Assembly: GCA_963721805.1 (NCBI GenBank)
Contig: CAVRJY010000001.1
Location: 608,001-672,000, forward strand
Origin: Nitrospirota bacterium
Lineage (GTDB): Bacteria > Nitrospirota > Thermodesulfovibrionia > Thermodesulfovibrionales > JdFR-86
Length of the DNA: 64,000 nt
Direction: 5' to 3'
Made by a program: the position numbers and the translations under genes. This document shows positions 28,153 to 47,797 of this stretch, piece after piece. Under the pieces are notes generated by a model. That model saw only the letters and a list, made by a program, of their open reading frames with translations, was not told the origin of the DNA and searched no databases. The first letter of the stretch is position 1. Each line of letters begins with the position of its first letter.

Positions 28153-28195
28153 TCGCATTGACGTTCCTGCCCGCCGCCTCGGTTATAATATAACC

Positions 28196-28975
28196 ATGAT
28201 CCGAAACACCTTCATCCACCTCGACGGGATGGGCCAGAAGACCGAGCGGAGGCTCTGGGCCGAGGGCGTCCTCACATGGGAGGACTTCATCCGAAGGCCG
28301 TCGATCAGGTCGGTATCCGCGGGGCGCAAGGCCGCGATGGACGCCGCTCTGACCGAGGCCACGGAGAGGCTTGCGCTGCGCGATGCGGCGTACTTCAGGG
28401 CCGCGCTCAAGACGCGCGAGCACTGGAGGCTCTATGGCGAGTTCCGCGAGGACGCGGCGTTTCTGGACATAGAGACCAACGGGCTCGCGCCGGACGCAGG
28501 CGGCTACCCCACGATGGTCGGCATCTCGACGTACGATGGATACAAGGCATTCATCCGTGGCCGCGATCTCACAGCGGCCAACCTCATGGAGGCGCTAAAG
28601 GGCGTCAAGTGCCTCGTGACTTTCTTCGGCACGGTGTTCGATATGCCGTTTCTCGCCAGGACTATGCCAGCGCTCGAACTGGACCTCCCGCACTTCGACC
28701 TCTGCTTTGCCGGAAAGAAGGTCGGGCTCTCGGGCGGGCTCAAGGCCGTAGAGAAGACTATCGGCATCTCGCGGCCGGCCGAGGTCGATGGCATGGACGG
28801 GTATGCAGCGGTGCTGCTATGGAACCGGCACCTCGACGGCTACAGAGATGCGCTCAAGACTCTGGTGACGTATAACCGCGAGGACACCGTGAACTTGCAG
28901 CTTCTCGCGGACAGGGTATACGCGGCCCTGCGCGGGCAGTCAGGCATAGAGGGACATGCGCATGCCGGTGCTTAG
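28196..28975 (+). CDS. RNase H-like / YprB-family exonuclease
   Basis: FLDIETNG, FDMPFL, GGLKAVE and YNREDT motifs. Confidence 0.8.
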   Translation: MIRNTFIHLDGMGQKTERRLWAEGVLTWEDFIRRPSIRSVSAGRKAAMDAALTEATERLALRDAAYFRAALKTREHWRLYGEFREDAAFLDIETNGLAPDAGGYPTMVGISTYDGYKAFIRGRDLTAANLMEALKGVKCLVTFFGTVFDMPFLARTMPALELDLPHFDLCFAGKKVGLSGGLKAVEKTIGISRPAEVDGMDGYAAVLLWNRHLDGYRDALKTLVTYNREDTVNLQLLADRVYAALRGQSGIEGHAHAGA

Positions 28976-29834
28976 GGAGTTCTCCGCGTACCTCGCGATA
29001 GAAAAGGGGCTCTCCAGAAACACCGTGACCGCATACTCGGCAGACCTCGGGAAGCTGGCCCTGTTTCTGGAAGGCCGGGGCGCGCGGCTTGCCGGGTTCG
29101 GCAAGGACGACGTCGCCGAGTTCATGGCTTCGCTCCACGCGGCGGGGATCTCGGCCGCAAGCTCAGCGCGCATGCTCTCGTCCATTCGCGGGCTGTGCAG
29201 GTATCTGCTCCTGCAGGGGCGCATCACTGAAGACCCGACCGAGAACATGCCCTCCCCAAAGAAATGGCAGACCGTGCCCAAGGCCCTGAGCTTCAACGAG
29301 GTAAGCGCGCTTCTGGCCGCAGACTCGCAGGGCGGCCTCGGGATGCGCGACGAGGCGATGGTCGAACTCCTGTACTCCTCCGGGCTCCGAGTCAGCGAGC
29401 TTGTCTCGCTGAAGCTCTCGAACGTGGATTTCACGGCCGGGTTCATGAAGATCACGGGCAAGGGCTCGAAGGACCGGATCGTCCCGGCTCACGAACGCGC
29501 TCTCCTTAAGGTGCGGCGGTATGTCGAGGAACTCAGGCCGAAGCTCCTAAAGGACCTCCGCTCGGACTACCTCTTCCTCACCGGCCTGGGCAGGCCGATG
29601 ACCCGCCAGAGGTTCTGGCAGGCCCTGAAGGTGCGCGGAAAGCGGGCCGGTGTGGAGCTGTCCCCGCACGTGCTCAGGCACTCGTTCGCGACCCATCTGA
29701 TAGAGGGCGGGGCGGACCTCAGATCGGTCCAGAAGATGCTCGGACACTCGGATATTTCGACCACTCAGATATATACAAAAGTTACTGTGGAGCGGCTTAA
29801 AAGGGTATATAATAAAAATCATCCGCGGGCATGA
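28956..29834 (+). CDS. xerD: Tyrosine recombinase XerD
   Basis: EKGLSRNT, LYSSGLRVSEL, HVLRHSFATHL and LGHSDISTTQIY motifs. Confidence 0.9.
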   Translation: MRMPVLREFSAYLAIEKGLSRNTVTAYSADLGKLALFLEGRGARLAGFGKDDVAEFMASLHAAGISAASSARMLSSIRGLCRYLLLQGRITEDPTENMPSPKKWQTVPKALSFNEVSALLAADSQGGLGMRDEAMVELLYSSGLRVSELVSLKLSNVDFTAGFMKITGKGSKDRIVPAHERALLKVRRYVEELRPKLLKDLRSDYLFLTGLGRPMTRQRFWQALKVRGKRAGVELSPHVLRHSFATHLIEGGADLRSVQKMLGHSDISTTQIYTKVTVERLKRVYNKNHPRA

Positions 29835-29873
29835 TGCGGGCAATATTACACGGATATTGGAGGGCTTACGACC

Positions 29874-32322
29874 TTGGAGACACTGAAGCCGGAGCAACTC
29901 TACGCGCGTTGCAGACACTGACTGCCTGAAGTTCCTGACCACGAACGACCTCACGCCGCACTTCGACACCATCGGGCAGGAGCGCGCGATGCGCTCGCTG
30001 GACTTCGGGCTGAGCCTCGACAGCACTGGGTTTAACATATTCATGCTCGGCGAGAACGGCACCGGCAAGATGACGACGATCAAGACCCTGCTGGCCGCGC
30101 AGGCCGCATCCGAGCCGATCCCGGACGACTGGTGCTATGTATTCAACTTCAAGGACCCGGACGTGCCGAACGCTGTCTCGCTCAAGGCCGGCAGGGCCGT
30201 CGAGTTCCATAAGGACATGGAGGAACTCATAAAATCCCTCCGCGCCGAACTGCCCAAGATCTTCGACACGAAGGAGTACGAAAAGACACGGAGCGCGGCT
30301 ATCGAGGAGTTTCAGAAATACCAGCGCGAGCAGCTGGTCGGTCTCGAAGAGGAGGCCAAGGCCAAGGGCTTCACGATCCGCAAGACCGCGGCCGGGCTGT
30401 TCATCGTTCCGATGACCCCGGCCGGTGAGCCGCTCACAGAGGAGGAGTTCGAGAAGCTCGACGCGGAGCACAAAAAGCGCATAGAGGAGATCGGCAAGGC
30501 CCTCCAGGAGAAGCTCGACGATATCGTCCGCTCGATGCGCACGGCCGAGAAGTCACTGAAGGAGCGCCTCAACAAGATCGAGCGCGACGCCGCGATGGGC
30601 TCGATCGGCCACTACATCGAGGAGATAGCGGCGAGGTTCTCCGACTACCCGAAGATCACCGCATACCTCGGCGAGGTCCGCGAGGACATCCTCGAGCACC
30701 TCGACGAGTTCAAGGGCGAGGAGGCGGAGCAGCCCTCTCCGCTGCCGTTTCTGAGGCCGCAGAAGGCCGAGCCGAGCTTCGCGCGCTATGTGGTAAACGT
30801 GCTCGTAAACAACGCCGAGACCACGGGCGCGCCGTGCGTGTTCGAGTCAAACCCGACCTACTACAACATATTCGGCCGCGTGGAGCACAAGTTCCAGTAC
30901 GGCATGGCCGTGACGGACTTCACGATGATCAAGGCCGGCTCGCTGCATAAGGCGAACGGCGGCTATCTCGTCATAGACGCGATGGACCTGCTTAAGAACA
31001 TCTTCGCCTACGAGGGCCTGAAGCGCTCGATCCGCAACCGCGAGATAAGGATCGAGGACGTCTGGGAGCAGTACAGGCTCATGTCCACCGCGACCCTCAA
31101 GCCCGAAGCCGTGCCGCTGCATATCAAGGTCATACTCATAGGCACGCCGTACCTGTACTACATGCTCTACTCCCTCGACGAGGAATACCGCGAGCTGTTC
31201 AAGGTCAAGGCCGACTTCGACAGCACGATGAAGCGCTCGGAGGGCTCGATCACGCGGTACGCGGAGTTCATAGCCTCCAAGGGCAAGGAGGAGGGGCTGC
31301 TGCCGTTCGACCCCGGAGGGGTGGCGCGCGTTGTGGAGTTCGGCTCGCGTCTCGCGTCCGACCAGCGGAAGCTCTCGTCACAGTTCAGCGAGATCGCGGA
31401 CATCGTGCGCGAATCGCACTACTGGGCCAGGAAGGCCGGCCGGGAGGCTGTATCGGACGAGCACGTCGAGACCGCGATCAGGGAGAAGGTCTACCGCAGC
31501 AGCCGCATCTCGGAGCGCATACAGGAGATGATGGAGGACGACACGCTCATACTGCCGACCTCCGGAGGCATCGTCGGGCAGATCAACGGGCTCGCGGTGA
31601 TGGGGATGGGCGACTACATGTTCGGGAAGCCCTCGCGCATCACGGCCAAGACCTTCGCCGGGAAGGCCGGGGTCGTAAACATCGAGCGCGAGACCAAGAT
31701 GAGCGGCAAGATACACGAAAAGGCGATCCTCATCATTAGCAACTACCTCGGCAGCCGCTACGCCTACAAAAAGCCGATCACCCTCTCGGCCTCGATCACC
31801 TTCGAGCAGCTATATGACATGATCGAGGGCGACAGCGCGACCTGCGCCGAGCTCATCGTCCTTTTAAGCAGCCTCAGCGGCGTGCCTATAAAGCAGTCCT
31901 TCGCTATCACAGGCTCGATGGACCAGGGCGGCGAGGTCCAGCCCATAGGCGGCGTCAACGAGAAGATCGAGGGCTTCTTCGACCTCTGCGCCGCGCGCGG
32001 CCTCGACGGCACGCACGGCGTCATCATACCCGCACGCAACGTCCGCAACCTCATGCTCAAAAAAGACGTCGTCGCTGCGGTGGCCGAGGGCAAGTTCAAG
32101 ATACACTCCATCAACAGGATGGAGGAGGGGCTCGAGATCATCACCGGCGTGCCCGCCGGGGTGGCCGACGAAAACGGCGAGTACCCCGAGGGCACGATCA
32201 ACAACCTCGTGATGAAACGCCTGACGCAGATCACCGAGGCGATGAAGCCGGCGAAGGACGAAGGCGAGGAGAAAAGCGACAAGAGTTCAACTGGCGGAGG
32301 CGGATGCGACACCTGCCGCTGA
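29874..32322 (+). CDS. Lon-family AAA+ protease (LonC/YcbZ-like) with an apparent frameshift near 29913
   Basis: TTG start after GGAGG gives METLKPEQLYARC, which continues in the next frame as DTDCLKF...IGQERAM. Also GENGTGK, EGDSA and QPIGGVNEKIEGF. Confidence 0.85.
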
Positions 32323-33164
32323 CAGCCCTGCTTATCGCGCTCACGCTGCCGCTTGCCATCCTGCCGAAGGGGCTTGCGCTCAGGGCCGGAGAGGCCATTG
32401 GCGGGTTGACGTTCCTGCTCTGGGGCTCGCGGCGGCGCATAGCAATATCAAACCTCGATGCCGCGATCAGGCGCGGCGCTATCAAGACGGACCAGACCGC
32501 CCGTGCGATCATCCGGCAGAATTTCCGCAACATGGGCCGCTCGCTGGCCGAGCTCGTGAAGGTCTACTACGGGCTCGGGGACCGCATCGTTAAGTCGGTC
32601 AGGGTCGAGGGGCTCGATCATTACCAGGCCGCGCTCGATAAGGGCAGGGGCGTGATCTTCGTCGGCGGCCACTGCGGCAACTGGGAACTGATGGTGCTGT
32701 GCGTGGCCTCGAAGATCGGCCGGTTCCACGGCGTGGCGCGCAGGCAGAGCAACCCTTATGTCAACAATTTCATAATCAAGGCGAGAGAGAAGTACGGCTC
32801 TGGCGTTATCTATAAATCCGGGGCGCTCAAGAAGTTCATCACGATACTCAAAAAGGGCGACGCGGTGGGCGTGCTCATAGACCAGTCGGTGATACCGGAA
32901 GAGGGCGTGCTCGTGGACTTCCTGGGCGCTCCGGCATGGACCACGAAGACGCCCGCGCTGCTTGCGAGGAAGACCGGCGCTGCGATTCTCGCGGGGTTCA
33001 TGTACCGCACGCCCGAAGGCTATGTCATACGCATAAACCCGGAGACCGAACTTAGCGGCGACGAGGTCGAAGATACGCAAAAGTTAACGAGGTATATCGA
33101 GGAGTACGTTAGTTCTAACCCTGCGGACTGGCTTTGGATACATAGACGCTGGAAGCGCACGTAG
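32304..33164 (+). CDS. Lipid A late acyltransferase (LpxL/HtrB family)
   Basis: HCGNWE, LIDQ and WLWIHRRWK motifs. Confidence 0.88.
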   Translation: MRHLPLTALLIALTLPLAILPKGLALRAGEAIGGLTFLLWGSRRRIAISNLDAAIRRGAIKTDQTARAIIRQNFRNMGRSLAELVKVYYGLGDRIVKSVRVEGLDHYQAALDKGRGVIFVGGHCGNWELMVLCVASKIGRFHGVARRQSNPYVNNFIIKAREKYGSGVIYKSGALKKFITILKKGDAVGVLIDQSVIPEEGVLVDFLGAPAWTTKTPALLARKTGAAILAGFMYRTPEGYVIRINPETELSGDEVEDTQKLTRYIEEYVSSNPADWLWIHRRWKRT

Positions 33165-33179
33165 CGCGTTCCCTTCTTC

Positions 33180-33302
33180 AAAGCGCTCCAAATCGCTTGA
33201 TACTGCGTTGGGCATCAAAGACTCGCCCTCTATGTACGTCTCAGTACACCATCGGGCGGTCTTCTTGCCCTGCCTTGTCTGAAGACGATTTGGGCGCGCT
33301 TT
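33180..33302 (+). repeat. 123-bp palindromic repeat (RPE/MITE-like)
   Basis: AAAGCGCTCCAAATCG...CGATTTGGGCGCGCTTT with a central GTACGTC-CAGTAC hairpin. Confidence 0.9.
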
Positions 33303-33456
33303 CGGGGGGTGCCACGGGCACCTCTCCTAAAAACCGCCCAGCCGCTGCACCCCCGCTCCCCCGTGGATTTCAAATGTTATTGAGACAAAGGCATAAGCAA
33401 TATGAGAGGATATAATACGTCAAATATATTATGCCTTCTTAGGTATTCTGTTAGGG

Positions 33457-34044
33457 GTGGAAATGATTAACCTTGAAAACACAAAGCATGCTGTTATCAG
33501 TATCATCGGGCAACATGCTAGCGAATCCATGAATGATATTTTTCTGCGCAAGATAACCGATATAAACACTGTCGGTTTGAGTTACTGGCTTATTAAATCG
33601 CATCAGGCAAAACCTATCATGGTTCAGAGCATTTGCAATATGGCTAAAAGCATATTTCAGCCATGTCCTTGTTTTTTCATTGAAGCAGCAACTAAACAAG
33701 GCGCTGTCCCAACAAAGCATTCTGTTTTTGCATATGAATATTCAAAAGATTCGTTGCATTGGGAGCCATTTCCTAAAGGGTTAAGCCCTGTTACGGGAAA
33801 AATTGATACTACTTCTTATGCCCTAGTGTTCAATCAATTAGAGCTTGTTGACATGACGATTGACTTGTGGAATTATACTGACTTTCGCGATAAAGACAAC
33901 CCAATAAGGATCTATCAGGGGGCTTCAACCTTGTGCGCGGTTAAGCAAGATTTGAATAACCCTTTAGGAAAAATAAAATCACGGTACAGAAAAGTGGTAG
34001 CCGTAGGCATATTAGCCGATCCGTATTGTGTCTATCTTAAATGA
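33457..34044 (+). CDS. AT-rich hypothetical protein
   Basis: 195-aa ORF with markedly lower GC than its flanks. No family recognised. Confidence 0.7.
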   Translation: MEMINLENTKHAVISIIGQHASESMNDIFLRKITDINTVGLSYWLIKSHQAKPIMVQSICNMAKSIFQPCPCFFIEAATKQGAVPTKHSVFAYEYSKDSLHWEPFPKGLSPVTGKIDTTSYALVFNQLELVDMTIDLWNYTDFRDKDNPIRIYQGASTLCAVKQDLNNPLGKIKSRYRKVVAVGILADPYCVYLK

Positions 34045-34153
34045 AACTATCGGGCTAACCAACATCCCGACCACACCCGCCATGTATAAGTTCCGATCAA
34101 ATCTATTCCACGGGGGAGCGGGGGTCCAGCGGCTGTGCCGCGTCTAACCCCCG

Positions 34154-34276
34154 AAAGCGCGCCCAAATCGTCTTCAGACAAGGCAGGGCGAGAAGACCGC
34201 CCGATGGTGTACTTGGACGTACATAGAGGGCGAGTCTTTGAAGCCCAACGACGTATCAAGCGATTTGGCGCGCTTT
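34154..34276 (-). repeat. 123-bp palindromic repeat, inverted copy
   Basis: Reverse complement of the 33180 copy with few mismatches. Confidence 0.9.
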
Positions 34277-34309
34277 AAAGAAGGTGACGTGAGCGGGTAA
34301 AGCTTCCGC

Positions 34310-34747
34310 TCACTCCCAGCTGTTGGTGTCCTTATCTTCCCCTTCTCCGCCCTGCTGTCCGTCACGTCCGTAAGAGGACATGTCGTATTCGCCGTGCGTG
34401 CCGGGGCAGACGTAGATATACGGCTTCCCCCAGGGGTCATTCGGCACCGCCTTGGGCAGGTACGGCCCGGCCCAGTTGGGCATGTTCGGGTTGCTCTGCA
34501 GCGAGGCCAGCCCCTCCTGGGTGGTGGGGTAGCGGCCTGTGTCGAGCCTCATCTGGTCTAGTGCGTGGCCCAACAGTTCGATCTGGGCCTTTGCAGCGGC
34601 GAGCTTGCTCGTGCCGACCTTCGGGAAGAGCTTGGGCCCGACGAGCGCGGCCAGAAGCCCGATTATTACCATAACTACGAGCAGCTCCACGAGCGTGAAG
34701 CCCCCGCGGCCCTTAACTCCGGTACTCAAGTCCTGTCTTAGTTTCAT
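34310..34747 (-). CDS. gspG: Type II secretion major pseudopilin GspG
   Basis: GFTLVELLVV prepilin motif plus YPTTQEGL, DPWG and SYGRDGQQGG. Confidence 0.92.
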   Translation of the reverse strand: MKLRQDLSTGVKGRGGFTLVELLVVMVIIGLLAALVGPKLFPKVGTSKLAAAKAQIELLGHALDQMRLDTGRYPTTQEGLASLQSNPNMPNWAGPYLPKAVPNDPWGKPYIYVCPGTHGEYDMSSYGRDGQQGGEGEDKDTNSWE

Positions 34748-34898
34748 ATTCTAATTATAAAGCTATGCCCACGGTTTCATCAAGTGGGGAGCGGTTCCGC
34801 CTTCATATTTTATGCATATTTTGCACCCCCTCCTTTCTCTGTCAGCGCGGTTTCACATTTGATTTTAGGGTTTAAGCTTGGGTATCATTAAATTTCCC

Positions 34899-36098
34899 AT
34901 GGAAACCAAGCGGATTATAGAAGAATCGGCGGCTTACGTCATGAACACCTATGGCCGCTTCCCCCTTGTGATACGCAAGGGCCGGGGACTGACGGTCTGG
35001 AACCCGGAGGGCAAGGAGTACCTGGACTTCGTAGGCGGCATAGCTACCAACGTCTTGGGCCACTGCCACCCCAACGTCGTCGTCGCGATCCAGAAGCAGG
35101 CCCAGCGCCTGCTGCACGTCTCGAACCTCTACCATATAGAGCCTCAGGTGAAGCTCGCCAAGATGCTCGTCGAGAACTCCTTCGCCTCGAAGGCGTTTTT
35201 CTGCAACTCCGGGGCCGAGGCCAACGAGGCCGCGATCAAGCTCGCGCGCAAATACGCGGTCGAGCACCTGGGCAAGGACCGCCACACGATCATCACCGCT
35301 AAGGGCTCGTTCCACGGCCGGACGTACGGCGCTCTCTCGGCCACCGGGCAGGAGAAGTTCCACAAGGGGTTCGAGCCGATGCTGCCGGGCTTCGTGAATG
35401 TCCCGTTTAACGACGTCCCCGCGATCGAGAAGGCCATCGACAGGCATACCTGCGCGGTGCTGCTCGAGCCGATACAGGGCGAATCAGGGGTGCGCATCCC
35501 GGCCCCCGATTACCTTAAAAACGTACGCCGCCTCTGTGACGAGCACGGCGTCCTGCTGATACTCGACGAGGTCCAGACCGGCATGGGACGCACCGGGAAG
35601 CTCTTCGCATACGAGCACTTCGGCATAACGCCGGACATCATGACGCTTGCCAAGGGGCTCGGCGGCGGCATGCCGATAGGCGCGATGGTCGCGACCGAGA
35701 AGGTCAGCCAGGCGTTCAAGCCCGGAGACCACGCATCGACGTTCGGCGGAAACCCGCTGGCGTGCGCCGCGGCCGTGGCCACGCTCGAGACTATCCTCGA
35801 CAGCGGGCTGCTGCTGGACCAGTGCACCCGCATGGGCGCGCTGCTCAAAGAGAGGCTCCTGAAGATGAAGGAGGAGTTCTCGAGCGTCGTGGTCGAGGTG
35901 CGCGGGATGGGCCTGCTGGTTGGGATGGAACTCACGCACGAGTGCGGCCCGATAGTGAAGGCTTGCCTGGAGCACGGGCTGCTGATTAATTGCGCCTCGG
36001 GCAACGTCCTGCGCTTCATGCCCCCGCTGATCGTGCAGCCCAAGGATATCGAGCAGATGGCCGAGATACTCGAAGAAGTGATGGAGCGGGTCTCGTAG
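34899..36098 (+). CDS. argD: Acetylornithine aminotransferase
   Basis: NSGAEANE, FHGRT, DEVQTG and AKGLGGG motifs, next to argF. Confidence 0.92.
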   Translation: METKRIIEESAAYVMNTYGRFPLVIRKGRGLTVWNPEGKEYLDFVGGIATNVLGHCHPNVVVAIQKQAQRLLHVSNLYHIEPQVKLAKMLVENSFASKAFFCNSGAEANEAAIKLARKYAVEHLGKDRHTIITAKGSFHGRTYGALSATGQEKFHKGFEPMLPGFVNVPFNDVPAIEKAIDRHTCAVLLEPIQGESGVRIPAPDYLKNVRRLCDEHGVLLILDEVQTGMGRTGKLFAYEHFGITPDIMTLAKGLGGGMPIGAMVATEKVSQAFKPGDHASTFGGNPLACAAAVATLETILDSGLLLDQCTRMGALLKERLLKMKEEFSSVVVEVRGMGLLVGMELTHECGPIVKACLEHGLLINCASGNVLRFMPPLIVQPKDIEQMAEILEEVMERVS

Positions 36099-36103
36099 CG
36101 GCG

Positions 36104-37003
36104 ATGAAGAGGGACTTCCTTACATTAAGGGACATTACGCCTGCCGAGATGGCGGCCCTGCTTGGGCGCGCCGCCGCGCTTAAGTCAGGCGCGGACAAGT
36201 CGAGCTGCCCCCTGATCGGCAAGAGCGTGGGGCTGATATTCGAGAAGAGCTCCACACGGACGCGCGTATCGTTCGAGACCGGCATATACCAGCTCGGCGG
36301 GCAGGCCGTGTTCATAAACTCCGGACAGAGCCAGATGGGCCGGGGCGAGACGCTCTCGGATACCGCGGCCATACTCTCAAGATACCTCCATGCCATCGTC
36401 ATCCGCACCTACGAGCACTCGAGGGTGCAGGAGATCGCCTCACACGCGACCGTGCCGGTGATAAACGGCCTTTCGGACATGCACCATCCCTGCCAGGCCC
36501 TGGGCGACATGCAGACGATAATCGAGCGCAAGGGCCGCCTCCAGGGCGTCAGGCTCGCATACATCGGCGACGGCAACAACGTCGCGCACTCTCTGATCGA
36601 GGCCGCGGTGATGGGCGGCATGGAACTTACGCTTGCGTGCCCGGCAGGATACGAGCCCAACCCCGGCATACTGAAGCGCGCCGAGGCCGAGGGCAAGGTC
36701 AGGCTTACGCGCGACCCCATGGAGGCCGCGAAAGGCGCCGACGTGCTCTATACCGACGTATGGGTGAGCATGGGCATGGAGGACGAGGCCGCGGAGCGCA
36801 GGAAGATCTTCGCCCCATACCAGATCAACGCGGCGCTCCTCTCGGCGGCCGCGCCGGATGCGATAGTGATGCACTGCCTTCCGGCCCACAGGGGCGAGGA
36901 GATCACGGACGAGGTCATGGACGGCCCCCGGAGCGCGGTCTTCGACCAGGCCGAAAACAGGCTCCATTCGCAGAAGGCCCTGCTGGAGTTCCTGATCAAA
37001 TAG
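36104..37003 (+). CDS. argF: Ornithine carbamoyltransferase
   Basis: SSTRTRVSF, HPCQ and HCLPAHRG motifs. Confidence 0.95.
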   Translation: MKRDFLTLRDITPAEMAALLGRAAALKSGADKSSCPLIGKSVGLIFEKSSTRTRVSFETGIYQLGGQAVFINSGQSQMGRGETLSDTAAILSRYLHAIVIRTYEHSRVQEIASHATVPVINGLSDMHHPCQALGDMQTIIERKGRLQGVRLAYIGDGNNVAHSLIEAAVMGGMELTLACPAGYEPNPGILKRAEAEGKVRLTRDPMEAAKGADVLYTDVWVSMGMEDEAAERRKIFAPYQINAALLSAAAPDAIVMHCLPAHRGEEITDEVMDGPRSAVFDQAENRLHSQKALLEFLIK

Positions 37004-37019
37004 TGCTAGGCTTCTCCTT

Positions 37020-37652
37020 ATGGACGACAAGAAGCGCGTATCAAAGATCATCGCCCTCCTTAGAAAACAATACCCGGTACTGAAGTGCGCGCTGCACTAT
37101 AAAACCCCCTTCGAACTTCTCGTGGCCACGATACTCTCGGCCCAGAGCACCGACGTGCAGGTCAACAAGCTCACCCCTGCGCTGTTTGCGAGGTACCGCG
37201 ATATAAAGGACTATGCCGGGGCACCAATAGCCGAACTCGAGGCCGCGGTGGGCAGCGTTAATTTCTTCAGGAACAAGGCGAAGAACATACAGGCCTCGGC
37301 GCGCAAGATCGTCTCGGAGTTCGGGGGCGAGGTGCCGCGCACGATGGCCGAACTCATAACGCTGCCCGGGGTGGCGCGAAAGACCGCGAACATCGTGCTT
37401 TCGGAGGCCTTCGGCGTCGTCGAGGGGATAGCGGTGGACACGCATGTCCTGAGGCTCGCAGGGAGGCTCGTGCTCAGCGCCAACACCGATCCGGTGAAGG
37501 TCGAGCGCGACCTCATGGCGAGCGTCCCGCGCAAGGACTGGGCCGCATTGTCGCTCATGCTGATCTCGCACGGACGCGCGGTATGCGCGGCCAAGACCCC
37601 GCGCCATTCGGAGTGCGTGTTAGCGGAGATCTGCCCCTCCAGAAATATTTGA
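37020..37652 (+). CDS. nth: Endonuclease III
   Basis: LLVATILSAQ, LPGVARKTA and VDTHV motifs. The Fe-S motif reads C-x6-H-x2-C-x5-C. Confidence 0.92.
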   Translation: MDDKKRVSKIIALLRKQYPVLKCALHYKTPFELLVATILSAQSTDVQVNKLTPALFARYRDIKDYAGAPIAELEAAVGSVNFFRNKAKNIQASARKIVSEFGGEVPRTMAELITLPGVARKTANIVLSEAFGVVEGIAVDTHVLRLAGRLVLSANTDPVKVERDLMASVPRKDWAALSLMLISHGRAVCAAKTPRHSECVLAEICPSRNI

Positions 37653-37672
37653 AATCGGATTTAAAATCTTAC

Positions 37673-37702
37673 TTGACTTATCCATGTGTGGAGAGCTATA
37701 GT
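37673..37702 (+). promoter_or_regulatory. Sigma70-like promoter upstream of the structured RNA
   Basis: TTGACT-N18-TATAGT. Confidence 0.6.
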
Positions 37703-37746
37703 CTTTGTTGCCTTAACCTTGCTGGAAGGTTTTCGATCCGGATTGA

Positions 37747-37944
37747 CGGGTCGGGGCTCGGCGCCATGCGTAGAAATGGCGGGAGTGACATAAAGAGGGC
37801 CGGCCAGGTGAGAAAGGAGGCGATTGGAGAGGCGGAAGGACGCTTTTCGGACGGGACCCGGTGACAGGGGCGAGAGTAATCTCAACCGCCACGGCCGGAG
37901 GAGGGGAATCACCCGACGATAAGCGAGCTGATAAGCCCGGCCCG
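37747..37944 (+). ncRNA. Candidate structured non-coding RNA (unassigned family)
   Basis: Nested long-range helices and GNRA-type hairpins in a 440-nt intergenic region. Confidence 0.6.
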
Positions 37945-38090
37945 ATTGCGATAAATTTTTAGTTGACGCCTCAGGTTTTGATGTATAATTGACGCAGAAA
38001 ATGAATCCCGTAAACTTTCCTTGAAGGTTCTCGGGAAGAAGTGCCGCATGCACAAGGCATGCTGGATAAAGGAAAAAGGAGAGATCAGGA

Positions 38091-38735
38091 ATGAAGCATG
38101 TAGCAAAATTTCTTCTCGTAGGTATCCTTGCCATAGCGTTTCTGGCCGGTTGCGCCAAGCAGCCCACCCAGGAGATGAATGACACCAAGGCAGCAGTAGC
38201 AGCAGTCGTTGCAGACCAGGGCGACAAGTACTCCCCCGAGGAGACCAAGAAGCTCAACGACGACCTCGCAGCAGCCAACGCCGAAGTGAAGGTCCAGGAC
38301 GAGAAGTTCTTCAAGAACTACGACAAGGCCAAGGGCATGCTCGCCAAGGTCAAGGCTGATTCAGATGCAGTGAAGGCCGCCCTCCCGGCTAAGAAGGAGA
38401 AGGCGAAGCAGGATGCAATGGCAGCTCTCGACGCGGCCAAGACCGCCGCTGCCGACGCGAAGGCTCTTCTTGCAAAGGCCCCCAAGGGCAAAGGCACCAC
38501 GCAGGACATCGAGGCCATGAAGGCTGATATGGCCGGTATCGACGAGTCGCTCCCGCAGATCCAGGGCATGATCGACAACGGTGACTACTTCGGCGCGCTC
38601 GAGAAGGCCAAGGCCGTCTCCGACAAGGCCGCAGCCATCTCCGCCCAGATCACCGAGGCGATGGCCAAGAAGAAGGTAGCAGCCCCGAAGGCCGCCAAGA
38701 AGGCCGCCAAGAAGGCCAAGAAGGCAGCGAAGTAA
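38091..38735 (+). CDS. Ala/Lys-rich helical lipoprotein with a KKAAK tail
   Basis: FLAGC lipobox, two helical repeats and a C-terminal AAKKAAKKAKKAAK. Confidence 0.8.
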   Translation: MKHVAKFLLVGILAIAFLAGCAKQPTQEMNDTKAAVAAVVADQGDKYSPEETKKLNDDLAAANAEVKVQDEKFFKNYDKAKGMLAKVKADSDAVKAALPAKKEKAKQDAMAALDAAKTAAADAKALLAKAPKGKGTTQDIEAMKADMAGIDESLPQIQGMIDNGDYFGALEKAKAVSDKAAAISAQITEAMAKKKVAAPKAAKKAAKKAKKAAK

Positions 38736-38763
38736 GGAGCATTGACGGGAAGCCGACGGTTTC

Positions 38764-39861
38764 GTGATACGGGACCTGATTAGAAGTTTGCTGGCATTGA
38801 CGGTACTGCTGGCCCTCATGGGCTGCAGCACCCCGCCCGCACCTCCAGAGGTTGAGCAAGCCAGAGCTCAGGACCTCAACCTCTGGAGGGAGGGCGCAAA
38901 ACTCCACATCCCCCTTGAGTATTCCGAATACACGGCACGCCTCGATAAGGCGCGCGAGGACTTCGCCAGGGAGTCCGCCAAGCTCCCGATCCTGATAAGC
39001 TACAAGGCTGTCACTGCGGAATTCGCTAACGTCATCACCGACGGTGACGCGCTCATGGGAAGGCTCAAGAGCCTCAAGGCCCAGCGCGAGGCGCTCGTCG
39101 CGTCGCGCATTGCCGAGGTAGAGGATTCGCTCCGGCGCGTGGACGAGCTCAGCTCGATGCTCAACGAAAAGCGCCTGTCGAGCCGCAACATCACCAAGGC
39201 CGAGATATTGATCAAGGAGGCCAGGGGCTACAACGCGAACTATGCCTTCGACAAGGCCGACAAGGCGCTCTCGGAGGCCGGCGTGCTCATCGATTTCGCG
39301 AAGTGCTCGGTCGTGCCCCTCCTGAAGCGCTATGTCGACGTCTCCCACATCAATCAGTGGAAGCGCCAGGTGGACGAGACGGTCGCTGCCTCCTCCGCCA
39401 AAGGCTCATATGCTATCATTATCAGTAAGCTTGACCGCAGACTCATCCTTTATAAGGCCGGAAGGCCATACAAGACCTTCCGCGTCGGCATCGGGCGCAA
39501 CGGCGCCTCGGACAAGCTCCACTCCGGGGACATGGCGACCCCCGAGGGCAGGTACTACATAACGAAAAAGAACCCCCGGAGCAGGTACTACAAGGCCATG
39601 CTCATCAACTATCCCAACGAAGATGACCGCGCCAGGTTCGCCTCGGCCAAGCGCCGGGGCGTGATCGGGCGCTCGGCCGGCATCGGCGGGCTGGTCGAGA
39701 TACACGGAGGCGGCGACGACAGCATGACATACGGCTGCATTGCGCTCGACAACAACGACCTGGACGACCTATATAGGCTGGTTGGGGTAGGCACGCCGGT
39801 GACTATAGTGGGCGTGACGGGCATGGACCCGGCGCTTTGCTCAAAGATGGAGGGCATATAA
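38764..39861 (+). CDS. L,D-transpeptidase family lipoprotein
   Basis: LMGC lipobox, TPEGRY and EIHGG...TYGCIAL catalytic motif. Confidence 0.85.
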   Translation: MIRDLIRSLLALTVLLALMGCSTPPAPPEVEQARAQDLNLWREGAKLHIPLEYSEYTARLDKAREDFARESAKLPILISYKAVTAEFANVITDGDALMGRLKSLKAQREALVASRIAEVEDSLRRVDELSSMLNEKRLSSRNITKAEILIKEARGYNANYAFDKADKALSEAGVLIDFAKCSVVPLLKRYVDVSHINQWKRQVDETVAASSAKGSYAIIISKLDRRLILYKAGRPYKTFRVGIGRNGASDKLHSGDMATPEGRYYITKKNPRSRYYKAMLINYPNEDDRARFASAKRRGVIGRSAGIGGLVEIHGGGDDSMTYGCIALDNNDLDDLYRLVGVGTPVTIVGVTGMDPALCSKMEGI

Positions 39862-39864
39862 TCC

Positions 39865-40491
39865 GTGAAGGCTTTGAAATGGGCTCTCATAGCGGTCTTC
39901 TCGCTGTTCGTGCTGGTCGAGGCGGCCGGGTATATCGTCTCTATCCGCAGCGGCAGGCATACTGAGGCTGTCTCGGAGAAGCCGAAAGACCCAGCAGCCC
40001 TAATGGCGGCGAATACGAAGCTTGAGGCGAAGCTCCGCGCGCTTGCGCCCAAGGGCGTCTACATAGTGATCGATACCGGCGGCAGCCGGCTTTATATCAG
40101 AAACGGCAGCGACGTCGTGCGCGAATGCATCGTCTCAAGCGGCAACGGAAACGTGCTCGAAGACCCCGCGACCGGCAAGAAATGGACCTTCGACACCCCT
40201 AGAGGCGAGTTCACCGTAAAGTCCAAGGCCCGCGAACCGGTCTGGATCAAGCCCAACTGGGCGTTCGTCGAAGAAGGCGAGTCGGCCCCGAAGGATTACA
40301 AGGACAGGGCCGAGGCTGGCGTTCTCGGCGACTATGCCCTGGGGATAGGAAACGGTTTCTTCATGCATGGTACGCTCTATACCAGGCTCCTGGGGCGAAA
40401 CGTAACCCACGGCTGCGTCCGTATGGGCGATGAAGACCTGGAGGCGCTGTTTAAGGCGTCGCCGCTCGGGACCCATGTATACATATTCTAG
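39865..40491 (+). CDS. L,D-transpeptidase (YkuD domain)
   Basis: TPRGEF, PVWIKP and MHGT...THGCVRM motifs. Confidence 0.88.
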   Translation: MKALKWALIAVFSLFVLVEAAGYIVSIRSGRHTEAVSEKPKDPAALMAANTKLEAKLRALAPKGVYIVIDTGGSRLYIRNGSDVVRECIVSSGNGNVLEDPATGKKWTFDTPRGEFTVKSKAREPVWIKPNWAFVEEGESAPKDYKDRAEAGVLGDYALGIGNGFFMHGTLYTRLLGRNVTHGCVRMGDEDLEALFKASPLGTHVYIF

Positions 40492-40500
40492 GAAAAGGCG

Positions 40501-41199
40501 ATGAAGATGAAAGCCATATATATGATTGTCTCCGCGCTCGCAGCCGCGCTCGCGCTGTTCATCTGCGCGGCGCCGGCCAGGGCCGCGGCCGACGCTTACT
40601 CTGAAAACAGGCTGCTTCAGGCCGAGCTTGCGCTCGCGATGAAACCCGACATATATTTCATCGTGGACCTGGATGCGAACAAGGTCTACTTCAAGGCGCG
40701 GGGCATAGCGCTGAAGGAGATCGCGATTCTGGGCAAGAGGTTCTGGGGCAGGACCCCGGAGATCGAGGCCAGAGAGCTGATCGGGAAGTCCGTGCCGATA
40801 GTGAGAAAGCGTGAGGAAATCTCCTCTGACGACGAGCCGGTGCCGGGCGCGACCACTCAGCCCCCGGTGCTGAAAAACGCAGCGCCCGCGCCTAACGCAT
40901 CCGCGTTCGAGGTCAATGCCCTCGAACTCAGGGACATGCCCGCCTCTTACAGCATTAAATTCGAAAAGGGCATCAGCCTGGTCGTCCGGCCCGAGCCCGT
41001 TGGGGCGGGGCAGAAGGCCCTTTCGCTGGCCCGCAAGGCAGGGTGGTACGCCTATATGCCGGTGCTGACACTTTGGAAGACCGTGAAGAAAGAGCCCGTC
41101 AGGGTGGTCCAGATCACCCTTAACGCCAAGGACGCGCAGGCCCTGTACTGGGCGCTCCATGACGGGAACTCGGTGATCTTCTACGCGCCGCAGAAGTAA
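40501..41199 (+). CDS. Exported hypothetical protein
   Basis: Signal peptide ending ARA-AAD, in the same operon as the transpeptidases. Confidence 0.7.
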   Translation: MKMKAIYMIVSALAAALALFICAAPARAAADAYSENRLLQAELALAMKPDIYFIVDLDANKVYFKARGIALKEIAILGKRFWGRTPEIEARELIGKSVPIVRKREEISSDDEPVPGATTQPPVLKNAAPAPNASAFEVNALELRDMPASYSIKFEKGISLVVRPEPVGAGQKALSLARKAGWYAYMPVLTLWKTVKKEPVRVVQITLNAKDAQALYWALHDGNSVIFYAPQK

Positions 41200-41313
41200 G
41201 TAACAGCCAGTCGACTGCTTATTTAAAGCGCTCCAAATCGCTTGATACTGCGTTGGGCTGCGAAGACGCGCCCTCTATGTACGTCTCAGTACACCATCGG
41301 GCGGTCTTCTCGC

Positions 41314-42408
41314 AGTGGATTGTCAAGCCAAGTGCAACAGGCGCGCATTTGCCGCAACCTCGGCGGGTGCCCTGTAGTCCAGCGTTTTTCTTGGTCTGTT
41401 GTTAATCTCATCAACGACGCGATCCAGCTGCTCCTGCGTTACTGTGTTGAAGTCGATCCCCTTCGGAAAGTACTGCCGCAGCAGCCCGTTGAGGTTTTCG
41501 TTCTGGCCGCGCTGCCATGAGCAATAGGGGTCGGCGAAGTATACGTCGATCCCCATCATGTATTTTAAGTCCCTGTAGCATGCAAACTCGCTGCCCCTGT
41601 CCACGGTCATGGTCATACGCATGCCCTGCCGCAGGCCTCCCAGCGCCGATACGGCGGCCTCCCTCAACGCCTCCGAGCCGGGCCTCGGCATCTTCCTCGA
41701 TATAAGGTAGAGGCTCTTGCGCTCGTTAAACGTTGCGATGCACGTTTTCCCGTCGAACCCGTAGACGGTATCCGCCTCCCAATCCCCGAAGCGTCCCTTC
41801 CGGACCACGATCTCGGGGCGCTGCCTGATGCTCAACGCCCCATTGAACCGGCCCCTGGTCTCAGGCCCCCGGGCTTTTCTGTAGCTCCTTCCCTTACGCC
41901 TCAGCATGCGATGCATCGAGCCCCCCATCGCCCTGTCCTGCCGTATCCATCTGTATAGCGTGGCAAAGGATATCCGCATCTCTGTGCTATGTGGATGGTC
42001 AAGCTTAAGGCGGCCCGACACCTGCTCCGGCGACCAACGCCTGCAAAGTCCCGCCATCGCATAGCCGATCAGGCCGTCCGGCCAGCGCTTCAGGCGTCTG
42101 CTCGCAAAATGCCTTCGGCGGACATAGAGCACGGTTGCGGCGTGCGCGCCATAGAAAGACTTCTTCGTGTTGCGCCGCAGCTCCCGGCTCACGCTCGATG
42201 GCGAGCGGCCAAGCTGGCGCCCGATCTCACGTATGCTCACCCCCGCATAACGCATCCTTGCGATGCCCTCCCGCTCATCAATGCTAAAATGACTGTAGCC
42301 CATCGTCCCTCCCTCTCTGTTTCGTCTGGTTGGTACTTGACTCTAACAGAACAGGATGACGATGGGCTTTTTCTTTCACAGGTGTTGCACTTCACATTAC
42401 AATCCGCG
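41314..42408 (-). mobile_element. IS30-family insertion sequence, copy 2 (1095 bp, 2-bp TSD GC)
   Basis: Same TIRs and length as 18589-19683. Confidence 0.92.
41323..42303 (-). CDS. IS30-family transposase
   Basis: Identical to the copy-1 protein except FADPY versus FANPY. Confidence 0.95.
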   Translation of the reverse strand: MGYSHFSIDEREGIARMRYAGVSIREIGRQLGRSPSSVSRELRRNTKKSFYGAHAATVLYVRRRHFASRRLKRWPDGLIGYAMAGLCRRWSPEQVSGRLKLDHPHSTEMRISFATLYRWIRQDRAMGGSMHRMLRRKGRSYRKARGPETRGRFNGALSIRQRPEIVVRKGRFGDWEADTVYGFDGKTCIATFNERKSLYLISRKMPRPGSEALREAAVSALGGLRQGMRMTMTVDRGSEFACYRDLKYMMGIDVYFADPYCSWQRGQNENLNGLLRQYFPKGIDFNTVTQEQLDRVVDEINNRPRKTLDYRAPAEVAANARLLHLA

Positions 42409-42570
42409 GCCCTGCCTTGTCTGAAGCCGATTTGGGCGCGCTTTCGGGGGGCACGGAAGAAGGTCGCCCCCCGCGCCCCCAAGGTCAACGGCATTAATAA
42501 ATAATGAGCGGGGCAGGGGCCCTGCGAATAAGTGAGCGAAGCGAATAGGGAAAGGTGCCCGTGGCACCCC

Positions 42571-43959
42571 CTAGCGGGACTCGATGCCTTCGAGGGTGAG
42601 GCTGCCCATAGCCGGGGCTATCATGGCCTGCCGGTCGAGCCCCCCGTTTATGAGCCTGATGTGCGAGGCGTCGGCCGGAAACTGCCCGAGCGTCGGGTCC
42701 ACCGGCACCCAGCCGTCGATGTAGACTTCGGGCCACGCGTGGTAATAAAACCTTCCACCCTGATAGACCAGCCCGAGGGCCATCCGCGTCGGGACTCCGG
42801 CCGAGCGCGCAAGCGCGGTATACAGCACCGTGTGCTCGTTGCAGTCGCCCTGCATCGTGCGCAGGACGTCCGAGGCCCGCGGGATGCTCACGGTCGGGGC
42901 CTTCCTGACGTTCCTGTAGACCCACTCGTATATGAGCCTGGCGCGTTCGGTCCGGTCAGAGGCCCCGGCGGTGATCTCGGCCGCTCGGGAGCGGATAGCC
43001 GGATCGTTGTCCTCTACGAACAGAGGGTCCGAGCCTGTGCGCTGCGCGGGCGGGTTGGAGTCGCCGCCTGCCGGGATCTCCATGCGCGCTATCTCGAGGA
43101 TATCCCCGTGGAGGGTCTGGCCGCCGCCCTGGAGGTCATACCGTGACAGTTCGATGCCGCGGAGCCGCAGCTTTAGGTATGAGACGCCGGGATCGAGGCG
43201 CAGGTTAAACGGTATGGACAAATCCGTGATGAGGTCGGCCGTTGCCCCGGTATCCGATACCGCCTGAGACCGGGGCTCTTTGATAAACGTGAGTCCCATG
43301 GATTCCTCCTTGACGATCTCGCCGTCCTTAGTGGCCCAGAGCACGGTCTTTGAGCCCAGAGTGCTGCCCTCGAGCCGCATGGCATCGACTGATTCACCCA
43401 TCACCCTTATGCCCTCGGGCCCGACGACCACGAGTTCGAGCGTGCCTTGTGCCGCGGTCGCGGGGTCCAGCAGCGGAAAGCGGAACCGCGCCCCGGGCTC
43501 CAGCATGCCCTCAAGCGGGAGCACGGAGGTCGATATAAGAGGAGACTCGTTCAGGACGAGCTGCTGCGTGCGGCTCACGCCGCCTGAATCAACCGTCAGG
43601 GCCACCTTGCCGTCTGCAACGTTGCCGGTAATGCGCATAGGGACGTCGGCCGTGACCGTTACCTTAAAGTCTATGGCGCGCATCTTGTCGTCGAGCCTCG
43701 CAGAGCAGTCTATGCGCATCTTCTTTTTCGCGCCCATCATCGCAAGGCGCAGCTCTGCGGTCTCTTCGAGCGAGTAGCCGTAAATCTCCCGCTTGAGCAC
43801 GTGGTGGGTGAAGCCTACCTTCGCGGACTTCTCGTAGATGCCCATCCATTGCTCCTCGAACTGGCGGGCGTAAGCCGGAGCGGCCGCAAGCAGCATCGCA
43901 AGCGCGATGGCGAGGCTAGTTATGAGGTATCTTGCGGTCTTTGTTCCTGAGGTATTCAT
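42571..43959 (-). CDS. Exported transglutaminase-like domain protein
   Basis: GDCNEH, YHAWPEV and WVPVDPT catalytic triad motifs, plus a signal peptide. Confidence 0.85.
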   Translation of the reverse strand: MNTSGTKTARYLITSLAIALAMLLAAAPAYARQFEEQWMGIYEKSAKVGFTHHVLKREIYGYSLEETAELRLAMMGAKKKMRIDCSARLDDKMRAIDFKVTVTADVPMRITGNVADGKVALTVDSGGVSRTQQLVLNESPLISTSVLPLEGMLEPGARFRFPLLDPATAAQGTLELVVVGPEGIRVMGESVDAMRLEGSTLGSKTVLWATKDGEIVKEESMGLTFIKEPRSQAVSDTGATADLITDLSIPFNLRLDPGVSYLKLRLRGIELSRYDLQGGGQTLHGDILEIARMEIPAGGDSNPPAQRTGSDPLFVEDNDPAIRSRAAEITAGASDRTERARLIYEWVYRNVRKAPTVSIPRASDVLRTMQGDCNEHTVLYTALARSAGVPTRMALGLVYQGGRFYYHAWPEVYIDGWVPVDPTLGQFPADASHIRLINGGLDRQAMIAPAMGSLTLEGIESR

Positions 43960-44797
43960 ATAGCCCCGGCAGGCCCCCTATGGCAGTGGCCAGAAACATC
44001 GAAAACGAGAGCGCGGTCGCCATCGCGGGCTCCACGCCGGCCGATCCAAGCAGCAGCACCGTCGCGCCCTCCCTAAGCCCGATCCCGGAGATCGAGACCG
44101 GCAGAGTCGCTACGGTCGTGATTATCGGTATGAAGGCCAGAAACAGGATGAAAGGCACGTGCATCCCAAGCCCCAGCGACAGCACATAGACCGAGAATAT
44201 GATCGAGAGCTGCACGACGAGTGAGAGCGCCAGCGTCTTGGCGATCACGCCGGGCTTCCTCAGGTACGAGTGGAAGTAGTCGTATACCGAACTCAGGACC
44301 TTCAGCCTCTGGCCTATCCTCAGGCCGAATATCAGGAGGCTGGAAAGCACGGCCGCAAGCACGATCAGCGGGAGCACCCACTCGATCCACGAGCCCCTGA
44401 AATAGCTAAACCCGAAGGGATACGCGACGATGCCGAGGCCCATAAGGGACGTGAACCCGACGAACCGGTCCATGAACACGGACGACAGGGCCTGCGTGCC
44501 CTTGCCGGTCTGTTTGTAGAGGTAATAGATCTTCACCGCGTCGCCGCCGACGAGGCCCGGCAGAAAGGTATTGAAGAACGACCCGAGCAGGTAAAGCGGG
44601 AAGAGCCGCCTGATGCCGAACCGCTCGGGCAGGAGCATCTGCCAGCGAAACGACGAGACGAGCGTGGCGAAGACGTAAGTGACGACCGCGAAGACGAAGG
44701 CCCACGGGTTTATGGCCCGCAGGCTTGAGAATACCTTGTCGATCCCGGCCTTGGAGAAGATCAGATAGAGCGCCCCGCCGCTTACGGCGAGCTTCAC
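43916..44797 (-). CDS. Lysylphosphatidylglycerol-synthase TM / flippase-like membrane protein
   Basis: RW, FFNTFLPGLVGGD and LPVSISGIGLREG motifs. Start uncertain. Confidence 0.8.
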   Translation of the reverse strand: MKLAVSGGALYLIFSKAGIDKVFSSLRAINPWAFVFAVVTYVFATLVSSFRWQMLLPERFGIRRLFPLYLLGSFFNTFLPGLVGGDAVKIYYLYKQTGKGTQALSSVFMDRFVGFTSLMGLGIVAYPFGFSYFRGSWIEWVLPLIVLAAVLSSLLIFGLRIGQRLKVLSSVYDYFHSYLRKPGVIAKTLALSLVVQLSIIFSVYVLSLGLGMHVPFILFLAFIPIITTVATLPVSISGIGLREGATVLLLGSAGVEPAMATALSFSMFLATAIGGLPGLYEYLRNKDRKIPHN

Positions 44798-44817
44798 TAT
44801 CAGCAGGAGGAGCTTTT

Positions 44818-45783
44818 TTATTCTTCGCTCCTGAGGCTTTTATTGATGACCCCGAGGGTCTTCTTTAGATAATAGATCGGCTTCCGCTGGCTCTCGTGGT
44901 ATATGCGCACGAGCATCTCGCCAAGCAGGCCCATGCCGATCAGCTGAATGCCGACGATGATCAGCAGCGCGCCCAGCAGCAGCAGCGGGCGGTTGCCTAT
45001 CGGGTTTCCGCGCACGAACTTGTCAAACGTGAGATACAGCGATATCAGCATCCCCGAGGCGCCGAGTATCAGCCCGCCCAGGCCGAAGAACTGTATCGGT
45101 TTGGTCGAGAAGCTCTGGAGGAACTTTATCGTTATAAGGTCCAGAAACACCCTGAAGGTGCGCCCGATGCCGTATTTGGAGACGCCGCGCGTGCGGGGGT
45201 GGTGCGTGACCTCGACCTCGCCTACGGTGACGCCGAACCAGTTGGCGACGGCCGGGATGAAGCGGTGCATCTCGCCGTAGAGGTTTAAATTTTTCACTAC
45301 CTCGCGGCGATATGCCTTCAGGGAGCAGCCGTAGTCGTGCAGGTGCACGCCCGTGACCTTGCTTATGAGCCAGTTGGCGGCCATCGAGGGCAGGCGGCGC
45401 GTGATGAACTTGTCCTTGCGCTGCTTGCGCCAGCCGCTTACGATGTCGTATTCCTTCGCCATCTCGACCAGGCGCGGGATGTCCATGGGGTCGTTCTGCA
45501 GATCGCCGTCCATGGTGACCACGACCTCGCCACGCGAGTAGTCGAAACCGGCCGTGAAGGCCGCGGTCTGCCCGAAGTTGCGCCTCATCCCGAGGACTAC
45601 GACATGGGGGTCGGCCGCGTGCAGGTCCTCGATTATGCGGAGCGTCCGGTCGGTGCTCCCGTCGTCGACGAAGATGATCTCGTAGCTTTGGCCGGTGCCG
45701 CGCAGGGCCGCGCTGAGCCTCTCGTGGAGCTCCGAGACGTTTTCCTCTTCGTTATACACGGGGATGACGACCGATATGTCCAA
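44818..45783 (-). CDS. GT2 glycosyltransferase (polyprenol-phosphate sugar transferase)
   Basis: SVVIPVYNEE, VDDGS, RNFGQ, DGDLQNDP and two C-terminal TM helices. Confidence 0.9.
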   Translation of the reverse strand: MDISVVIPVYNEEENVSELHERLSAALRGTGQSYEIIFVDDGSTDRTLRIIEDLHAADPHVVVLGMRRNFGQTAAFTAGFDYSRGEVVVTMDGDLQNDPMDIPRLVEMAKEYDIVSGWRKQRKDKFITRRLPSMAANWLISKVTGVHLHDYGCSLKAYRREVVKNLNLYGEMHRFIPAVANWFGVTVGEVEVTHHPRTRGVSKYGIGRTFRVFLDLITIKFLQSFSTKPIQFFGLGGLILGASGMLISLYLTFDKFVRGNPIGNRPLLLLGALLIIVGIQLIGMGLLGEMLVRIYHESQRKPIYYLKKTLGVINKSLRSEE

Positions 45784-45874
45784 TGCCGGTTCCTTTCGAG
45801 TGCGATATGCATGTTATCTTAGCAATTCCGTGAGGCGTATGGCAAAATATCGCGTGGGGTTGATAATATAAGGC

Positions 45875-46102
45875 ATGACTATAGACGGCCGTTCACTCTC
45901 ATCGCAGGATATCATGCGCTCGCTGCAGGGCGCCATCCGCGCCAAGTGCGACACCGAAGCGGTGGAGGTCATCGTCTCGGACCAGGCCGAGGCCGCGCGC
46001 GTCAAGGCGTTCATGAAGATGAGCGGCCTGCAGGTCCAGACGCTCCGCCAGGACGGACGGTGGACCGTGCTTGGAAGCGGGTCCGGCTGCCATTGCTGCT
46101 AG
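45875..46102 (+). CDS. Small TusA/SirA-like protein
   Basis: IDGRSL...VEVIVSD...VKAF..MSG pattern. Lacks the CPxP motif and ends in CHCC. Confidence 0.5.
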   Translation: MTIDGRSLSSQDIMRSLQGAIRAKCDTEAVEVIVSDQAEAARVKAFMKMSGLQVQTLRQDGRWTVLGSGSGCHCC

Positions 46103-46127
46103 GGCTAAGCTTGCTTGCGCCATCCCT

Positions 46128-47567: not shown

Positions 47568-47568
47568 A

Positions 47569-47691: not shown

Positions 47692-47797
47692 CGGGGGGCA
47701 CGGACAGCGGACGCCCCCCGCGCCCCACAAGGCCAACGTCATGATTGGGAGGGTCAACGGCATATTTAAAGTTTTCGCGTGCGCATGGGATACGCTG

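Follow-up and report, generated by a model that had tools for sequence, protein, structure and literature searches.

A GC- and purine-rich island between nth and a lipoprotein/L,D-transpeptidase operon in a Nitrospirota genome: a candidate lineage-specific leader RNA

What does the GC-rich island between nth and a lipoprotein/L,D-transpeptidase operon do in this Thermodesulfovibrionia-like genome, if it does anything? The window, the whole 64,000-nt stretch of DNA that was analysed (G000:C1:608001-672000), belongs to a source genome of 2.78 Mb that is 94% complete. The candidate RNA lies within the 438-nt spacer between nth and the lipoprotein gene. We tentatively read the island as a non-coding RNA that is young and restricted to one genus; its most likely form is the leader that a distal promoter would give to the lipoprotein operon.

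The spacer and its neighbouring genes

The features of the locus are collected in Table 1. The GC content of the sequence on the two sides of the island was 39% and 42%, and both the island and the whole spacer were single-copy in the source genome, each matching itself only; the island is therefore no member of the genome's repeat families. A GC ranking of intergenic regions placed it at 243 of 696. This rank is uninformative; it was obtained with an ad hoc gene caller that misses genes (coding fraction 0.77-0.86 on five contigs >65 kb).

The hairpins, helix strands and promoter-like hexamers listed in a first-pass annotation of this DNA were all found in place. Its CGGGTCGGG (37747-55) and CCCGGCCCG (37936-44) are complementary with one G-U pair, and in the mid helix (37800-10/37887-98) CCGGCC (37800-05) is complementary to GGCCGG (37893-98). 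The promoter claimed for the island, TTGACT-N18-TATAGT (P1), is present as described and aimed at the island. It was among the 7 sites with a score of 10/12 out of 17 promoter-like sites in 28000-47999, a region in which such sites were enriched (17 vs 5.5 ± 2.6 in shuffles). From the position of P1, transcription would start near 37709. A second promoter had been proposed further downstream. Its TTGACG (37963-68) and TATAAT (37984-89) hexamers are present, but they are separated by a spacer of only 15 nt; the promoter scan omitted the pair for this reason and listed the neighbouring TTGACG(37989)-16-TAAACT instead. The terminator scan of 37000-38800 detected no plus-strand terminator-like site, behind the island or elsewhere. 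The missing terminator says little, because terminator-like sites were not enriched in the 20-kb region at all (18 vs 15.2 ± 4.6 in shuffles).

Table 1. Positions of features in the window (nt, position 1 being the first letter of the window).
Feature	Position	Strand	Description and source
nth (endonuclease III), upstream gene	37020-37652	+	210-aa ORF; Pfam HhH-GPD 5.5e-21
Sigma-70-like promoter candidate P1	37673-37702	+	TTGACT (37673-78), 18-nt spacer, TATAGT (37697-37702); 10/12 matches
5'-proximal hairpin of predicted transcript	37715-37731	+	AACCUU/AAGGUU; sequence; seen in the fold with the closing helix enforced
GC-rich, purine-rich island (candidate RNA body)	37745-37946	+	202 nt; GC 63.9%, purine 65.3%
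Closing helix, 5' strand	37747-37760	+	CGGGTCGGG (37747-55), then GCTCG (37756-60)
Hairpin i	37762-37781	+	CGCCAT/ATGGCG, 6 bp, 8-nt loop; in five folds
Core block	37795-37870	+	≥80% alignment in more distant relative (run X1, record 4)
Purine linker	37811-37820	+	AGAAAGGAGG, Shine-Dalgarno-like AAGGAGG; read from sequence
Hairpin ii	37821-37853	+	8-bp stem plus extension, GAAGGA hexaloop (37835-40); folding
32-codon TTG frame	37824-37922	+	no Pfam match
Hairpin iii	37857-37870	+	CCC-GGTGACA-GGG; sequence and folds
Hairpin iv	37872-37883	+	GAGA-GUAA-UCUC, GNRA loop; sequence and folds
Closing helix, 3' strand	37924-37944	+	CGAGC (37924-28), 7-nt internal loop, CCCGGCCCG (37936-44)
T5 run	37956-37960	+	11 nt past closing helix; no canonical terminator formed
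Proximal promoter candidates	37963-38016	+	TTGACG-15-TATAAT (37963-89); TTGACG-16-TAAACT (37989-38016), 9/12
Conserved 5' UTR block of lipoprotein gene	37991-38062	+	Aligned in run X1, record 4, and run X8, record 20
Lipoprotein gene	38091-38735	+	LAGC lipobox, Ala/Lys-rich, C-terminal Lys; weak DUF4398 match 1.2e-4
Two YkuD L,D-transpeptidase genes	38764-39861, 39865-40491	+	Pfam YkuD 1.7e-19 and 2e-20
Copies of ~55-nt repeat	~33168-33227, 34229-34284, 41218-41272, 47569-47616, 51239-51286, 56788-56859		BLAST

The Nth protein ends in an iron-sulfur motif, C-x6-H-x2-C-x5-C (window 37560-37652), whose His stands at the position of the second Cys in E. coli endonuclease III; Pfam EndIII_4Fe-2S scored 15.6 bits on Nth, under its cut-off of 20.5 bits. 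On the other side of the spacer, the closest named relatives of the adjacent transpeptidase were Thermodesulfovibrionia/Nitrospirota MAGs with identity ≤45%. L,D-transpeptidases attach the C-terminal Lys of Braun's lipoprotein to peptidoglycan. The lipoprotein and the two YkuD genes resemble this system and may represent an Lpp analogue in Nitrospirota. A C-terminal Lys was seen in 10 of the 13 translated homologues of the lipoprotein.

The 5' UTR block of the lipoprotein gene may itself act as a leader element. Contigs of two different relatives showed few differences there among those listed, from 37997 to 38062. The block contains two hairpins, CCCG...CGGG and GCAUGC-ACAAG-GCAUGC.

Folding of the island

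The excised island (37745-37946) gave an MFE of −82.2 kcal/mol and a z-score of −3.22, and 1 of 200 shuffles folded as well. In a sliding 200-nt scan, where z-scores are noisy and 30-40 shuffles were made per window, the plus strand of the spacer reached a minimum z of −3.26 with three adjacent windows ≤ −2.9. The minus strand never went below −1.4, and the excess of folding is thus specific to the plus strand. None of 29 random 440-nt loci of the same genome reached −3.26 in the same scan, the lowest being −2.98. As controls, the 6S locus gave −4.12 and the c-di-AMP riboswitch locus −0.61; the latter value indicates that the z measure can overlook real RNAs. Extending the island by flanking sequence (45 nt upstream, 14 nt downstream) weakened its z-score to −1.78. 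By these predictions the island carries a modest, strand-specific statistical signal of structure, and its global fold is doubtful.

This doubt comes from the long-range helices. The MFE structure of the excised island matches the nested helices drawn in the first-pass annotation, with the outer 9 pairs of the closing helix at p ~1 in the excised 202 nt, but the nesting was lost with the predicted leader. In a transcript from 37709, the pair probability of both the closing and the mid helix fell to ~0. The pyrimidine tracts of the leader paired instead with the purine linker, which is unpaired in the excised fold and bound to the CCUU tracts of the leader when the transcript begins at 37709. 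Enforcing the closing helix with the leader present cost 9.1 kcal/mol (−88.6 vs −97.7). The closing helix was predicted only at the exact cut 37745-37946, and the multi-stem architecture as a whole was not robust to the predicted leader. The GTGA/TCAC and CGG/CCG pairings that were also part of it appeared in none of the four MFE structures that were read pair by pair.

The local hairpins behaved differently. Five folds were read pair by pair, namely the island with flanks, the excised 202 nt, 37709-37960, and the pair with the closing helix enforced and unenforced, and four hairpins were common to all of them: 37762-81, 37827-48, 37857-70, and 37872-83. They include the three hairpins noted in the first reading (CGCCAT..ATGGCG, CCC-GGTGACA-GGG, and GAGA-GTAA-TCTC), which are present and kept across the five folds. 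Hairpin ii retained its stem (37827-34/37841-48) in all five, and its extension (37821-25/37850-53) formed only in the excised-type fold.

Distribution among relatives and sequencing runs

The searches detected the island in close relatives only. BLAST of the spacer against 40 relatives returned its own genome only (1 of 41). The argF-nth region was matched in 10 of the 10 family genomes at 64-70% DNA identity, and despite this match a counterpart of the spacer was found in none of the ten. When the island was compared by BLAST with 400 phylum genomes, 273 of 401 genomes yielded hits at E≤1. No homologue was detected among the matches listed, where the best non-self E was 0.001 and the non-self matches were fragments of 17-53 nt at chance level.

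Searches with a structural model gave the same result. A covariance model, R1, was built from the single sequence. Over 151 genomes of the order, it found its own genome only and gave no match in the 150 others. Applied to 26 syntenic or related loci, it reached at best 8.0 bits and detected no homologue. Its best score among the 17 metagenome loci, 12.4 bits, was a 30-nt hairpin with 174 interior positions deleted. With filters off, R1 returned only noise (≤11 bits) in five nth loci. No match was found by blastn-short and nhmmer on syntenic loci, no metagenome contig matched a 20-mer derived from the core, and tblastx of the spacer against its own genome gave nothing below E 0.1. In the five fetched nth loci, other long open frames start close downstream of nth. 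In one family relative (L005 820-1230), two small genes with a HicB/HicA-type look on reading stand between nth and the lipoprotein gene.

Homologues of the lipoprotein were present in 3 of the 10 family genomes and, at ≤64% identity, in 17 metagenome loci. A counterpart of the island upstream of them was found in none of the 15 loci profiled for upstream GC (L068 and L070, being partial matches, were excluded). The lipoprotein homologues of relatives follow short AT-rich spacers unlike the island, and the element is therefore dispensable for the operon. As no homologue was found beyond near-identical lineages, the island is an addition specific to a genus-level lineage.

Close copies were recovered from one sequencing run. 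The share of the sampled words present in any single run was at most 0.15, and four runs were assessed as contigs at ≥80% likeness. In a freshwater sediment DNA run (X1), a 379-nt contig (record 5) covered 37617-37962 with 37 differences and 4 gaps. A second contig of this run (record 4, 1165 nt) comes from a more distant relative: its nth aligned over 37371-37587 with 33 differences in 217 nt, which is ~15% divergence. Within the spacer, this contig matched only 37795-37870 and 37991 to ~38056, so the two blocks kept are the island core and the 5' UTR of the lipoprotein gene. The single island difference among those listed was 37840 A>G, in the loop of hairpin ii. On conservation, then, close copies exist in two contigs of one sediment run, but the island is lacking from the family level outward.

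One contig came from an RNA library (X8, 435 nt). It aligned to 37932-38373 with 47 differences and 15 gaps, running from the 3' edge of the island over the proximal promoter candidates and into the gene, with nothing before 37932. This contig may be DNA carry-over. Runs X2 and X14 had no contig over the island, which is not evidence of absence.

A leader RNA and the competing readings

In the reading that we tentatively favour, transcription would proceed rightward from the promoter candidate at 37673-37702, starting near 37709. The most frequent form would be a structured leader of ~380 nt, carried by lipoprotein/L,D-transpeptidase mRNA that initiates at the distal promoter. This form is proposed because no terminator was seen between the island and the lipoprotein gene; read-through would be needed for it. 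The proximal promoter would yield a parallel transcript with a short leader, and a stand-alone RNA of ~240 nt would be a less likely form than the long leader. Function would reside in the core (37795-37870), which exposes AAGGAGG and carries the GAAGGA-loop hairpin. Two modes of action are proposed, namely recognition of the core by a protein or the 30S subunit, and alternative base pairing between the core and the leader's CCUU tracts; either might alter mRNA stability or translation.

This leader reading is favoured by the promoter-like site at 10/12, by a GC/purine-rich island in AT-rich flanks, and by the folding of the plus strand. The four recurrent hairpins, the missing coding signal (Pfam, tblastx), and the core kept in the diverged contig also speak for it, as do the 379-nt sediment contig, the missing terminator, and the RNA-library contig that extends from the island's 3' edge into the gene, the last with the caveat of possible DNA carry-over and of lying outside the island body. 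It is disfavoured by the lack of a homologue in relatives, the non-robust global fold, and the dispensability for the operon. A more specific version is unlikely when taken as a whole: a previously undescribed structured RNA, restricted to one genus of an uncultured Nitrospirota lineage, through which the genes for an Lpp-like lipoprotein tethered to peptidoglycan and for its L,D-transpeptidases are governed by way of a conserved 76-nt core mimicking a ribosome-binding site. There, the 76-nt core would be recognised by a protein or the 30S subunit, or would switch against the leader.

In a reading close behind the leader reading, and nearly as likely, the island would be a neutral, lineage-specific spacer of ~200-250 bp that came to lie between nth and the lipoprotein promoter. 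The promoter-like hexamers and the hairpins would then have arisen by chance within an AT-rich flank and a G-rich insert. The element is missing from every relative examined at family level or beyond, the upstream spacers of relatives are short, and the flanks abolish the long-range fold, all of which speaks for this reading. Moreover, the z-score lies only ~0.3 past the best of 29 random loci, at 30-40 shuffles per window. However, a neutral spacer does not account readily for the strand-specific excess of folding across three adjacent windows, for a promoter match of the best class immediately upstream, or for 37795-37870 being kept as a block in a relative whose nth is ~15% diverged.

A trans-acting sRNA of ~240 nt (37709 to ~37960) that acts through exposed purine tracts is improbable, and we count it as one form of the non-coding RNA proposed above. 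It might serve as a sponge for an RNA-binding protein such as CsrA, or pair with pyrimidine-rich targets. The island has its own promoter-like site, more such sites lie between it and the operon, and a T5 run is present at 37956-60; the first reading had likewise suggested a stand-alone RNA. That suggestion was not supported, as a terminator-like hairpin is lacking behind the island; the RNA-library contig also runs across the proposed 3' terminus. Hfq was also not found in the 94%-complete genome.

For a CsrA sponge in particular, a GAAGGA hexaloop tops a stable hairpin and the genome encodes CsrA. But csrA adjoins fliW (G000:C2:532892-533505), an arrangement that we take to be the protein-antagonist form of the CsrA system, and GGA motifs were not enriched (10 vs 8.2 ± 2.2 in shuffles), with GGA in only 1 of the 4 robust loops. 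Because csrA is beside fliW and GGA is not enriched, the sponge reading is unsupported. Like CsrB/RsmZ-type RNAs, the candidate is rich in purines, carries several GGA motifs, and has one loop of the AAGGA type. It differs from them in that GGA is not above composition and lies mostly outside hairpin loops, and in that CsrA is paired with FliW.

It is very unlikely that the locus encodes a small basic peptide, with AAGGAGG serving as the ribosome-binding site of the 37824-37922 frame. The first-pass annotation had stated that no start codon follows AGGAGG. This was inexact: a TTG 3 nt downstream opens the 32-codon frame, at a spacing that is very short for a start. The full 7-nt Shine-Dalgarno match stands 3 nt upstream of the TTG, and the block retained in the relative spans this site and the first 15 codons. 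Against the peptide, a spacing of 3 nt is below the usual need for a start, the start is buried within a stable hairpin, and the aligned block ends mid-frame at 37870. The listed variant at 37840 would alter a residue, and none of the six small frames of the spacer had a Pfam match, so the frame is without a family.

Known families were searched with Rfam 15. At gathering score, no family matched 37600-38100, 6S models included, in agreement with the first-pass annotation, which had left the RNA unassigned. A permissive search (E≤10, 37600-38120, 4227 models) returned four non-credible hits, all ≤18.8 bits; the best was HgcE with 18.8 bits vs a cut-off of 50.

6S RNA (RF00013) was rejected as the identity of the island: its model had no match on the spacer, and the 6S RNA of this genome is located at G000:C2:565361-565546 (76.6 bits). 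The candidate is similar to 6S RNA in length, and its excised fold has a closing helix around large unpaired segments. In contrast to 6S RNA, its interior is four-way branched instead of a single bubble between two stems, and the closing stem and long unpaired strands of the excised fold vanish with the leader included. The c-di-AMP riboswitch (ydaO, RF00379) was likewise rejected, with no match at E≤10. Its sole hit in the genome is at G000:C4:315077-315209 on the minus strand (81.9 bits), and this sequence reads unlike the island. Members of this riboswitch family often precede cell-wall genes, and the candidate is likewise upstream of such genes.

A highly divergent member of a known family, for example another 6S-like RNA or a variant riboswitch (for c-di-AMP or another ligand) that controls the cell-wall genes, is disfavoured and the least probable of the readings. 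A closing stem around large purine-rich stretches that are left unpaired, and the position before cell-wall genes, would suit it, but none of the 4227 Rfam models gave a credible hit even at E≤10, and the same models detect the true 6S RNA and c-di-AMP riboswitch elsewhere in the genome, at 76.6 and 81.9 bits.

The closest class for the leader RNA is that of lineage-specific sRNAs and long 5' leaders; structured 5' leaders include the stabilising leaders of mRNAs for abundant envelope proteins. The candidate shares with this class a sigma-70-like promoter, a length of 200-250 nt, local hairpins, and a narrow range, and it is a GC-rich island in an AT-rich spacer before an envelope lipoprotein gene of an abundant type. 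It differs in being without a terminator, a known partner, or a family. The element is in this respect an ordinary-looking lineage-specific RNA candidate.

If the RNA is real, it would be among the first regulatory RNAs to be proposed in Thermodesulfovibrionia, and it would link control at the RNA level to the way in which the outer membrane is tethered to the cell wall. This tethering is unexplored in this phylum; in E. coli, a small RNA regulates it. General importance is modest until a transcript is seen, because the candidate is an orphan found in a single genus of uncultured bacteria.

Two other features of the window were observed. A REP-like repeat of ~55 nt, with copies listed in Table 1, gave 137 BLAST hits across the genome. 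At window 3891-3977, a tRNA of 87 nt scored 56.3 bits; its variable arm is long, and its anticodon was read as UGA (Ser) from the alignment.
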